Part shown: positions 300-3,729 of the stretch, piece by piece
Position numbering within the stretch: the stretch's first letter is position 1
Layout of the letters: the number at the start of each line of letters is the position of its first letter
Source of the DNA: a virus
Lineage: Duplodnaviria; Heunggongvirae; Uroviricota; Caudoviricetes
Reading direction: 5' to 3' (one strand)
Virus record (IMG/VR): IMGVR_UViG_2563366840_000013
Length of the DNA: 3,729 nt
Program-made: the position numbers and the translations under genes
The notes under the pieces: generated by a model
The model's input: the letters and a program-made list of their open reading frames with translations, nothing else
Databases searched by the model: none
Told to the model about the DNA's origin: nothing

Positions 300-521
300 A
301 TGGCAGACATCATTGATTCAGCATCAGAAATTGAAGAATTACAGCGCAACACAGCAATAAAAATGCGCCGCCTGAACCACCAGGCTGTATCTGCCACTCA
401 TTGTTGTGAGTGTGGCGATCCCATAGATGAGCTAAGACGCCTGGCCGTTCAGGGTTGTCGGACTTGTGCAAGTTGCCAGGAAGATCTGGAGCTTATCAGT
501 AAACAGAGAGGTTCGAAGTGA
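300..521 (+). CDS. TraR/DksA-family C4-type zinc-finger protein (73 aa)
   Basis: ORF of 73 aa with the C-terminal four-Cys motif CxxC...CxxC (HCCECGDPIDELRRLAVQGCRTCASCQ) typical of TraR/DksA-type RNAP secondary-channel regulators. Possible SD AGGGA at 285-289. Stop TGA at 519-521 overlaps the next start. Confidence 0.75.
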   Translation: MADIIDSASEIEELQRNTAIKMRRLNHQAVSATHCCECGDPIDELRRLAVQGCRTCASCQEDLELISKQRGSK

Positions 522-769
522 GCGTAATTCACTCTCAGGCACTGCGTGAAGCGGCAGAGCAGGCAATGCCTGACAACTGGGGATTTGACGCGGACCTTTT
601 CCATGAGCTGGTAACACCATCGATTGTGCTGACACTGCTGGATGAACGGGAAAGAAACCAGCAATACATCAAACGCCGCGACCAGGAGAACGAGGATATT
701 GCGCTAACGGTGGGGAAACTGCGTGTTGAGCTGGAGACAGCAAAAATCAAAACTCAACGAGCAGCGTGA
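518..769 (+). CDS. Hypothetical protein (83 aa), translationally coupled to the TraR-like gene
   Basis: GTG start at 518-520 overlaps the upstream stop (GTGA); SD GAGAGG at 506-511 with 6-nt spacing. Acidic, helical-looking translation, product not recognised. Frame stays open for 52 codons beyond the TGA at 767-769. Confidence 0.55.
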   Translation: MSVIHSQALREAAEQAMPDNWGFDADLFHELVTPSIVLTLLDERERNQQYIKRRDQENEDIALTVGKLRVELETAKIKTQRAA

Positions 770-1067: not shown

Positions 1068-1682
1068 ATGAAAAAATCAATACTAATTTTAGGGCTTACG
1101 TTAATTGTCTCATCTCAAATACCATCGGCAATGGCAAAAAATGAATCAAAACTATGGGTTGTTGTTGATCGAACGGAAAGACATACCTGCCCTTCAAGTA
1201 AATGTGGAGTGGCTGGGAAACTATTTTTCAGGGAAGGCGTAGATTTTCTAGAAAAAAAAGGTGAATGGGTTCGTATAACTGAGCCATATTCAGCCTCATG
1301 TGTTGGAGGGGAAAGCGAATATATTAAAGAAGGTAATAAATCCTGCACAAGAAAAAATGGAATCGTTAATGGCAAGTTTTCAGAATGGGTTAAACTTAGT
1401 GATCTTAGCAGTGAAAGGCCATCAGATCCTGCTGAAAATGCGAGCGGAGATGATACTTTAATCAAAGGATCTGATGACTACCGTATATACAAAAAAGAGT
1501 TTTCTTCGGCAGCTAGGAAGTTAATAAATGAAGGGGTCTGCACGGAAAGCGATTTTAAGGAAATCGGAGGGTGGATGGCATCAAGCAATAAGGGTGAAAA
1601 CATCTATTTCACATATTGCGGAGGAATGACGTTGTCGAACAGAATATATCTAGACGTTAAAAGTGGAAAGACTTTTAGATAA
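1068..1682 (+). CDS. Secreted (signal-peptide) cysteine-rich protein with SH3b-like segment, AT-rich cargo gene (204 aa)
   Basis: N-terminus MKKSILILGLTLIVSSQIPSAMA has a basic n-region, hydrophobic core and AxA cleavage motif, with no lipobox. Mature part has 6 Cys. Segment RHTCPSSKCGVAGKLFFREGVDFLEKKGEWVRI resembles bacterial SH3 domains. SD AAGGA at 1056-1060, 7 nt before the ATG. Hand-counted GC of 60-nt lines is about 28-40 percent. Terminator downstream. Confidence 0.8.
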   Translation: MKKSILILGLTLIVSSQIPSAMAKNESKLWVVVDRTERHTCPSSKCGVAGKLFFREGVDFLEKKGEWVRITEPYSASCVGGESEYIKEGNKSCTRKNGIVNGKFSEWVKLSDLSSERPSDPAENASGDDTLIKGSDDYRIYKKEFSSAARKLINEGVCTESDFKEIGGWMASSNKGENIYFTYCGGMTLSNRIYLDVKSGKTFR

Positions 1683-1790: not shown

Positions 1791-1975
1791 CGCCATATTT
1801 TATGAAGCAAATACGACACTATAGATAATTAAGCGTTACTGGTTGTCGATTCCTCACTCATTCCTGCTGATGGCTGTCTTCTTGTATGTGCCATTGAAGG
1901 GTAATATCGCGTAAAAAGATACCGGAAGTATCCGCGCCGCCATGATTGTCTTTCTCCTGATGCAGGAAAAGCAGA

Positions 1976-2095
1976 ATGACTAGATCAGCAGCAGAGCGCA
2001 AAGCCGATCAGAGAGCCAAGCAAGCATCATCCGGTATGCGTAAGCTGGAGCTTGTACTTGATGCTCAGGAAATTGAAATGCTGGAGCGTAACTGA
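1976..2095 (+). CDS. Small basic protein (39 aa), possibly the N-terminal part of a TGA-interrupted gene
   Basis: ATG at 1976 preceded by AGGAAAA (1964-1970); in-frame stop immediately upstream at 1958-1960. Translation MTRSAAERKADQRAKQASSGMRKLELVLDAQEIEMLERN. Ends at TGA 2093-2095, after which the same frame stays open to 2314. Confidence 0.45.
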   Translation: MTRSAAERKADQRAKQASSGMRKLELVLDAQEIEMLERN

Positions 2096-2314
2096 GCCAC
2101 GCGCCGCTTCAGGCGTGCGCCTTACGAGTTTGGTGAGTACATAGCATTACTGAGCCGCCAGGATGATGCACGTGTGCGCTGGCGTATAAAATCGATTAGC
2201 AGAAAACGTTGCCGTAAGTGCGGCGAGAGAGTTCCTGTTAATTCATGCCCGTGTAATGGTGACTCACAATACTGGGTGACCAAAGGCTGGCACGAAACAA
2301 AATTAATGATATAA
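2096..2314 (+). other. In-frame continuation after TGA encoding a zinc-ribbon-like segment (72 codons to TAA 2312-2314)
   Basis: Same frame as 1976-2095. Translation ATRRFRRAPYEFGEYIALLSRQDDARVRWRIKSISRKRCRKCGERVPVNSCPCNGDSQYWVTKGWHETKLMI has a CxxC-x9-CxC motif. No ATG in frame; a possible GTG start at 2174 with AGGA at 2160-2163. Confidence 0.35.
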
Positions 2315-2342: not shown

Positions 2343-2771
2343 ATGAAATTAGACCAGCAATATCTAAAAGATCTACTTATCGCATTCGAAAAAACTCGTG
2401 GCCCTGACACGATGCTTAGTGAACTAGAGGATAATGGCTTTAATAGATATGACCAAGATTTTATTTTCCATATGCGATTATTATGTGACTACGAATTAAT
2501 AGTCAGGGTTGATGGAAAACCTGGGTTCGGTCATATAATGTCCAAAGCGTTAGGGGAAGGTGTTGGATATAGTTGGATCGAAGTACCACTGAGGTTGACA
2601 GCAAGAGGGCATGATTTTATTGCTGACTTACGTCAAAAGGATGTCTGGCAAGCTATAAAAACAAACTTTAAGGATGAGGGAATTAGTACACTTATGAGTG
2701 TTTCAAAATCACTAGCAAAAGGCTTTGCAAAGAAAAAGATAAAAGATATTACAGGAATAGATATTGAATAA
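2343..2771 (+). CDS. DUF2513-like small protein, AT-rich cargo gene (142 aa)
   Basis: Strong SD GGAGG at 2333-2337, 5 nt before the ATG. N-terminus MKLDQQYLKDLLIAFEK and the segment GHDFIADLRQKDVWQAIKTNFKDEGISTLMSVSKSLAKG resemble my recollection of the phage-associated DUF2513 family. Hand-counted GC about 32-40 percent. Terminator downstream. Confidence 0.75.
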   Translation: MKLDQQYLKDLLIAFEKTRGPDTMLSELEDNGFNRYDQDFIFHMRLLCDYELIVRVDGKPGFGHIMSKALGEGVGYSWIEVPLRLTARGHDFIADLRQKDVWQAIKTNFKDEGISTLMSVSKSLAKGFAKKKIKDITGIDIE

Positions 2772-2854: not shown

Positions 2855-3022
2855 ATGCACTTCCGAGTCACAGGAGAATGGAATGGAGAGCCATTCAACA
2901 GAGTTATCGAAGCAGAGGACATCAATGACTGCTATAACCACTGGATGATATGGGCGCAGATAGCACATGCAGAAGTAACCAATATTCAAATTGAAGAACT
3001 GAAAGAACACCAAACCGCCTGA
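2855..3022 (+). CDS. Small hypothetical protein (55 aa)
   Basis: ATG at 2855 with SD GGAG at 2844-2847 (7-nt spacing); in-frame TAA immediately upstream (2852-2854). Translation MHFRVTGEWNGEPFNRVIEAEDINDCYNHWMIWAQIAHAEVTNIQIEELKEHQTA. Stop TGA 3020-3022 lies in the loop of the next terminator hairpin. Confidence 0.5.
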   Translation: MHFRVTGEWNGEPFNRVIEAEDINDCYNHWMIWAQIAHAEVTNIQIEELKEHQTA

Positions 3023-3037
3023 TGGCGGTTTTTTATT
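3012..3037 (+). terminator. Intrinsic terminator (8-bp perfect stem)
   Basis: AAACCGCC (3012-3019) pairs with GGCGGTTT (3024-3031), loop TGAT, T-run 3029-3034 then ATT. Confidence 0.7.
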
Positions 3038-3048
3038 GGAGACAAGAA

Positions 3049-3393
3049 ATGTCAGATTTGGCTATGAAGGTTTTGAAATGGCAATCGACTTGCGATGTCG
3101 GCATCAGTAGCGCAACTCTTGCCTCAATCGCATGTGGACTGAAAAAGAATATCTATGGTCATCACTTCGGCGCTCCACATGACGCAGCCGATTTCCGACG
3201 ATGCGTTGCACTTGTTGAGCAGATCCCAGAAATCAGGGATTCATTCGACAAGGTTGCAAAGCGCGTTCCGGCATTCAAAGGAATCCTCAACGAATGGGAT
3301 TCACTCGTTGCTCTGTTGAAGTCTGAAATGAAGACGTACGGGAACAAAGCACCAGAGACTTACAGAAGAATCAGCGAGCTACGCAAGGACTAA
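3049..3393 (+). CDS. Hypothetical protein (115 aa; start moved from the track's 3022 to ATG 3049)
   Basis: The track ORF 3022-3393 would begin inside the terminator hairpin. The in-frame ATG at 3049 has SD GGAG at 3038-3041 (7-nt spacing) and gives MSDLAMKVLKWQ.... GC-typical composition, product not recognised. Confidence 0.65.
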   Translation: MSDLAMKVLKWQSTCDVGISSATLASIACGLKKNIYGHHFGAPHDAADFRRCVALVEQIPEIRDSFDKVAKRVPAFKGILNEWDSLVALLKSEMKTYGNKAPETYRRISELRKD

Positions 3394-3462: not shown

Positions 3463-3486
3463 GCCGCATCAATGCGGTTTTTTATT
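3463..3486 (+). terminator. Intrinsic terminator upstream of the AlpA-like gene
   Basis: CCGCA (3464-3468) pairs with TGCGG (3473-3477), loop TCAA, followed by TTTTTTATT. Shares the 14-nt string GCGGTTTTTTATTG with the terminator at 3012-3037. Confidence 0.55.
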
Positions 3487-3513: not shown

Positions 3514-3729
3514 TTGGAGATAGCACTCATGCAACACGAACTACAGCCTGATTCACTGGTTGATTTGAAATTCATCATGGCCGATACTGGCTTCGGTAAA
3601 ACCTTCATCTATGATCGGATTAAGTCCGGAGACCTTCCAAAAGCCAAAGTTATCCACGGGCGAGCAAGATGGTTATATCGTGACCATTGTGAATTCAAAA
3701 ATAAGCTCTTAAGCCGCGCCAATGGGTAA
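3514..3729 (+). CDS. alpA: AlpA-family (phage Vis/excisionase-like) HTH transcriptional regulator (71 aa)
   Basis: Translation LVDLKFIMADTGFGKTFIYDRIKSGDLPKAKVIHGRARWLYRDHCEF fits the AlpA/Vis pattern (L..V...TG.s..tIY..i..G.fP.p.K.g.r..W...d...w). SD GGAG 9 nt before the ATG. Complete ORF ending TAA at 3727-3729. Confidence 0.75.
   Translation: MEIALMQHELQPDSLVDLKFIMADTGFGKTFIYDRIKSGDLPKAKVIHGRARWLYRDHCEFKNKLLSRANG

Follow-up and report, generated by a model that had tools for sequence, protein, structure and literature searches.

The stretch of DNA analysed here (the window; 3,729 nt) contains, on its plus strand at positions 1976-2314, what is very probably an inactivated copy of a small, 112-codon phage gene in which a nonsense mutation has changed a TGT codon to TGA. 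The pseudogene status of this sequence is already known, as it is flagged in public annotation (RefSeq). Translation confirmed the layout described in the initial annotation: an ATG at 1976 opens a 39-aa ORF (MTRSAAERKADQRAKQASSGMRKLELVLDAQEIEMLERN) that ends at a TGA at 2093-2095, after which the same frame runs free of stops for 72 codons (ATRRFRR...CRKCGERVPVNSCPCNGDSQYW...KLMI) and closes with a TAA at 2312-2314. The only later Met in the frame is at codon 111, in keeping with the earlier remark that in-frame ATG codons are lacking until the very end. The probability of finding 72 stop-free codons by chance is 0.009 under the base composition of the whole window and 0.02 under the local composition, so that the low chance expectation noted earlier holds, at about 1-2%, and the open continuation goes beyond what chance would produce. 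The continuation also carries the Cys motif that had been reported, although its spacing was given as CxxC-x9-CxC and is in fact CxxC-x8-CxC (C79, C82, C91 and C93).

The gene belongs to the PHROG 536 family. An intact homologue matches the phrog_536 profile end to end (positions 2-114 of 115, E = 1.6e-54), and the two pieces of the window copy match positions 2-40 and 69-114 of the same profile, in that order. We found that in homologues the gene is one continuous ORF of 112 aa whose codon 40 specifies Cys. This bears out the leading reading of the initial annotation, namely that a gene for a protein of about 112 aa was hit by a recent nonsense mutation. Intact ORFs of this kind, with nucleotide identities of about 90%, include WP_001129693.1 (strain UTME-10), phiV10 p55 and epsilon15 p49. 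The family proteins compared with the window copy (Escherichia phage phiV10 p55, YP_512310.1; Salmonella phage epsilon15 p49; E. coli WP_001129693.1 and WP_001129736.1) are collinear with it over all 112 codons, at 90-96% nucleotide identity, and share its length, its Cys cluster and its basic N-terminal region, which resembles a ribbon-helix-helix (RHH) domain, but they are intact and have Cys40, whereas the window copy has TGA at codon 40 together with the substitutions G80R and C99Y. In place of the uninterrupted ORF of about 112 codons expected of the family, the window thus has a frame broken at codon 40, which makes the locus a pseudogene member of PHROG 536 and not a functional one. Its Cys cluster is likewise incomplete: C79, C82, C91 and C93 are present, C99 has become Tyr and the invariant G80 has become Arg.

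Alignment with intact alleles shows that codon 40 differs by one base only, TGT against TGA; the ancestral codon was therefore neither of those suggested at first (TGC or TGG). The comparison with homologues that had been proposed as a check places a sense codon, for Cys, at this position in the intact relatives, and among the homologues examined we found none that ends naturally at codon 39 and none in which the downstream part is a separate gene. Over the 86 loci sampled for the codon count, 80 of which are IMG/VR contigs, codon 40 is TGT in 65, TGC in 2 and TGA in 19; Cys is thus encoded in 67/86. Every TGA allele among these loci falls in the lambdoid-context group; of the 80 IMG/VR contigs, 17 have TGA. 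Cys40 is invariant in the close family but not conserved in the wide family. For the census of complete genomes, we searched with queries of 55 nt that had the variable base at their centre, which forces every 28-nt megablast seed to include that base. Of the 5,426 complete E. coli genomes, 64 have TGA; in 28 of these the match is exact for the window type and in 29 for the ATCC 8739 type. TGT was found in at least 353 genomes, about 80 of which are of lambdoid type.

The TGA alleles appear to have a common ancestor. Nucleotide 129 of the gene (window position 2104) is C in all eight distinct TGA alleles and T in all ten distinct lambdoid TGT alleles, and this complete linkage to a synonymous change points to a single origin of the TGA haplotypes, followed by divergence and recombination. 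Recurrent mutation behind the two TGA haplotypes was considered and is ruled out by the same linkage.

E. coli LZHX12 carries the identical 339 nt (100%) at locus ABDE81_RS16010, a PGAP/RefSeq pseudogene described as 'hypothetical protein; internal stop', and the same wording is attached to ECOLC_RS26175 of E. coli ATCC 8739 (96.8% identity); all three copies, including that of the window, have TGA at the same codon. The LZHX12 and ATCC 8739 prophages possess lambda-type xis/int genes beside ybhC, whereas the window ends in a TorI-type excisionase. This indicates that the TGA allele has passed between prophages that differ in their integration modules. When the whole window is compared with the complete E. 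coli genomes of the collection, no match exceeds 98.1%.

The window comes from a lambda-like E. coli prophage and represents its early-left ("ea/b") region, which is non-essential; in related records gam, bet and exo lie upstream of the window region. Features are listed in Table 1. In Uetakevirus, by contrast, the gene is the last of the early operon and lies directly upstream of the small terminase gene. Intact alleles also occur in the lambdoid neighbourhood of the window, as near-identical copies in phage Chlobot and in E. coli LH10-b-1 (WP_001129736.1); the surroundings shared by the Chlobot and LH10-b-1 alleles comprise TraR/DksA, the 204-aa protein, the umuD remnant, DUF2513 and xis.

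Table 1. Features of the window and of the interrupted gene within it.
Feature	Position	Strand	Basis or remark
TraR/DksA gene	300-521		
Truncated ead/Ea22 gene	518-769		83-aa ORF
Gene for 204-aa secreted protein	1068-1682		In AT-rich block
UmuD/HumD remnant	1836-1943		In-frame stop
Very probable pseudogene of 112 codons, PHROG 536 family, broken at codon 40	1976-2314	+	phrog_536 match; PGAP 'internal stop'
N-terminal remnant of 39 codons: basic N-terminal helix, ribbon strand and helix A of the predicted RHH	1976-2092	+	
Premature TGA from TGT (Cys40), T-to-A at 2095	2093-2095	+	Alignment with intact alleles
Remnant of 72 codons, probably untranslated: predicted RHH helix B and C-terminal Cys cluster CxxC-x8-CxC-x5-C	2096-2311	+	
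6-bp hairpin just past the UGA (CGCGCC / GGCGUG, loop GCUUCA), not SECIS	2100-2117	+	Fold
Synonymous C in codon 43 (CGC), fully linked to TGA	2104	+	Allele comparison
Substitution G80R	2213-2215	+	Within the 72-codon remnant
Substitution C99Y	2270-2272	+	Within the 72-codon remnant
DUF2513 gene	2343-2771		Followed by two small ORFs, then a TorI-type excisionase

Several other features of the window were recorded. Directly upstream of the interrupted gene is the remnant of a UmuD/HumD-like S24 peptidase, whose two parts (LLVVDSSLIPADGCLLVCAIEG and YRVKRYRKYPRR) are separated by an in-frame TAA and which PGAP describes in relatives as 'DNA repair protein, incomplete'; with this decayed neighbour adjoining it, the gene sits among decaying cargo genes. 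The ead/Ea22-like gene is another decayed gene nearby, annotated as frameshifted and incomplete in relatives. The 204-aa protein has an N-terminal signal-like sequence and corresponds to phrog_8310; it lies in an AT-rich block (901-1950) with a GC content of 0.37-0.40, against 0.45-0.51 in the flanks, and this gene block resembles a moron-type insertion. Several of the small genes are followed by terminator-like hairpins with T-runs (222-240, 2816-2835, 3012-3031 and 3463-3478), 11 such hairpins being found where shuffled sequences led us to expect 3.2. One of them, at 3012-3031, overlaps the ATG at 3022 of a 123-aa ORF (3022-3393), which for this reason probably starts at ATG 3049; the resulting protein of 114 aa is a full match to phrog_1229. 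The sole Rfam match in the window, STnc420 at 2985-3038, falls on the same hairpin and is at chance level (E = 0.58). The TorI-type excisionase occupies the end of the window (3529-3729).

We calculated pairwise pN/pS to assess how selection acts on broken and intact alleles. For TGA alleles the ratio is 1.01 (13 non-synonymous and 3 synonymous segregating sites), for intact lambdoid alleles it is 0.33, and for alleles of Uetakevirus type it is 0.13 (26 non-synonymous and 49 synonymous). The contrast in site counts between the TGA and the Uetakevirus-type alleles (P = 0.0015, by Fisher's exact test), which rests on small counts from related and partly recombinant alleles (e.g. L022), is an indication, rather than a formal test, of relaxed selection, with the TGA alleles apparently evolving neutrally. 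Within the TGA clade, all five changes upstream of the stop are non-synonymous, and pN/pS for the codons downstream of it (41-112) is 0.57. Besides codon 40, the window allele has K3R, G80R and C99Y, all at residues that do not vary in the close family; in the type B TGA allele every other invariant residue is kept. Over their 339 nt, the eight distinct TGA alleles contain neither a frameshift nor a second stop.

Further lesions have arisen independently in the same module. In E. coli TL20 (L087, 4976-5314) and in IMG/VR locus L023, Cys79 (TGC) has been converted to TGA, and in L042-L045 the 3' end of the gene has been replaced after about codon 104. With independent lesions at other places in the same module, the gene is evidently dispensable in the lambdoid setting.

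We propose that, in one lambda-like E. coli prophage lineage, a T-to-A change turned the TGT of Cys40 into TGA. Translation would then stop at residue 39, where RHH helix A ends, and RHH helix B and the entire metal-binding part would be lost. On the structural model, a 39-aa product without helix B and the metal site should neither fold nor dimerise, and we infer that it should have no function. That the remaining 72 codons are still open would be explained if the mutation were recent compared with the time that neutral evolution takes to introduce new stops and indels.

Leaky readthrough of the UGA by near-cognate tRNA-Trp or tRNA-Cys, an option raised in the initial annotation, would yield a little functional full-length protein and leave the gene down-tuned rather than dead. 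We regard this as very unlikely. It would agree with the intact downstream frame in all eight distinct TGA alleles, with the retention of all other invariant residues in the type B allele and with a pN/pS for codons 41-112 that is not clearly 1, but the window allele has lost G80 and also C99, a probable metal ligand, and both the whole-gene pN/pS of 1.01 and the exclusively non-synonymous changes upstream of the stop argue against it, as do the unrelated inactivations in other copies of the module, where the gene is dispensable. Nor is the stop conserved across the family, as programmed readthrough would lead one to expect: TGA is confined to one haplotype group of one module (19/86). In the window, G follows the UGA, a context that is not known to be especially leaky in E. 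coli. A trace of readthrough may occur in the type B haplotype, but nothing in the sequences suggests selection for it.

TGA alleles make up about 45% of the lambdoid-context copies in complete E. coli genomes. There is only a slim chance that the allele is kept for a reason, with low-level readthrough or the 39-aa half-RHH fragment modulating the early-left operon. The synonymous T-to-C change at 2104, 9 nt past the TGA position 2095, converts a G-U pair of the downstream hairpin into a G-C pair (-14.2 against about -10.5 kcal/mol), and if the allele were kept for such modulation, this strengthening would be part of the mechanism, for example through ribosome pausing or altered termination efficiency. 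Most likely, the change is a hitch-hiker on the haplotype.

It is highly improbable that the locus now represents two small genes, encoding a 39-aa basic peptide and/or a 46-aa Cys-rich peptide that starts at GTG 2174. The 46-aa ORF pointed out in the initial annotation does exist, in the same frame, and AGGA stands 8 nt upstream of both ATG 1976 and GTG 2174; the AGGA before the GTG, however, encodes a conserved Q-D-D in every intact homologue and is thus not a new ribosome-binding site, which contradicts an independent peptide. Both ORFs have been called elsewhere, for example as a 46-aa CDS in Chlobot and as the clusters P0205 (39 aa) and P0154 (46 aa), and phrog_34005 is a family made of the N-terminal piece, a 40-position profile that spans only residues 1-40 of the PHROG 536 protein. 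The Chlobot CDS, however, is a mis-call inside an intact 112-aa ORF, and phrog_34005 and several 39-aa and 46-aa database clusters, P0205 and P0154 included, seem to have arisen from gene calling on broken alleles. Moreover, the 39-aa piece would lack RHH helix B according to the model, the changes in TGA alleles are mostly non-synonymous in both pieces, and the 46-aa ORF of the window has both G80R and C99Y. In the GenBank record of Chlobot (PP925838.1; L004, 3861-4339), the intact ORF (L004, 4001-4339) is absent from the annotation, which wrongly splits it and has instead an out-of-frame 105-aa 'UmuD-like protein' and a 46-aa 'transcriptional regulator' from an internal GTG.

Selenocysteine, with the UGA recoded in place of Cys40 and the downstream hairpin acting as a SECIS element, had been judged much less likely from the outset, and we agree: its probability is minimal. 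The arrangement resembles that of bacterial selenoprotein genes such as E. coli fdhF, as an in-frame UGA at a Cys codon invariant among close relatives is the classic Sec/Cys pattern, and the UGA is followed by a 6-bp G+C-rich hairpin whose first loop base is G and which the linked synonymous T-to-C change strengthens. In the bacterial SECIS model, the apical loop lies 16-37 nt from the UGA and the loop G is followed by G or U (PMC13188914). The window hairpin agrees with the remaining loop, stem and energy criteria, but its loop begins 10 nt past the UGA, and the loop G precedes C; a second hairpin lies 43 nt away and lacks a G at either of the first two loop positions. The folding energy is unexceptional for a sequence of this composition (-14.2 kcal/mol and z = -1.9 over 33 nt; z = -1.2 over 68 nt). 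Nor is it conserved among TGA alleles, since in the type B haplotype G140A (R47H) weakens the stem again (-8.8 kcal/mol, z = -0.4). Unlike selenoprotein genes, the TGA alleles show a pN/pS of 1.01, in line with neutral evolution and not with purifying selection, and a catalytic or redox role of residue 40 is unlikely given that Cys40 is not conserved in the wider family. An Rfam scan of the whole window in E-value mode found nothing near the TGA. Finally, a sequencing or assembly error, also considered in the initial annotation, is excluded, since the same TGA occurs, on two diverged haplotypes, in 64 complete E. coli genomes that were assembled independently and in 17 of the IMG/VR contigs examined.

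PHROG 536 comprises 532 clusters at 90% identity and 176 representatives at 50% identity. Among the 120 clusters listed of the 532, nearly all proteins are 112 aa long and come from Enterobacteriaceae and their phages; none of these clusters has a Pfam domain, and their names are limited to "hypothetical" or "phage protein". Sequence searches with the intact protein against Pfam, NCBIfam and PDB gave nothing above threshold. Weak Fer4_20 matches in 14 of 41 close members (best E = 0.018) probably reflect just the spacing of the Cys residues. A study of vB_EcoP_ZX5 that deals with a Uetakevirus 'regulatory protein' (PMC9782041) covers other ORFs and is silent on the PHROG 536 gene.

A first AF2 model built from 41 close homologues was unusable (pLDDT 59); a usable model was obtained from a deeper alignment of 60 sequences. 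The N-terminal part of the intact 112-aa protein is predicted to form an RHH DNA-binding domain with a basic arm. RHH family models match below threshold only, NF008671 in 21 of 60 members (best E = 5.6e-5) and RHH_5, RHH_1 and RepB-RCR_reg in one or two members each. The C-terminal part is predicted to hold a zinc-ribbon-like metal site of four to six cysteines: the wide family shows no variation at C79 or C82 and at least 90% conservation of C99, and together with C91 and C93, which also belong to the C-terminal cluster, this pattern fits such a site. Relative to RHH regulators (the CopG/Arc/MetJ superfamily, the 'LexA regulated protein' YbfE and plasmid RepB/CopB-type proteins), for which no family threshold is reached, the intact protein has this Cys-rich module in addition, and its DNA binding is a prediction. 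The PHROG label "transcriptional regulator" is consistent with these features, and a role in transcription regulation is plausible. The intact gene shows strong purifying selection in phages and prophages of Uetakevirus type (epsilon15- and phiV10-like; pN/pS = 0.13; L003, 3001-4053; L005, 2501-2839), and it is conceivable that it has a role there in switching on late or packaging genes.

The case in the window is one of textbook gene decay in a non-essential cargo region of a prophage and is of little significance in itself. For the intact PHROG 536 family, which lacks a Pfam domain, the analysis yields a description: a predicted RHH domain joined to a Cys-cluster domain.
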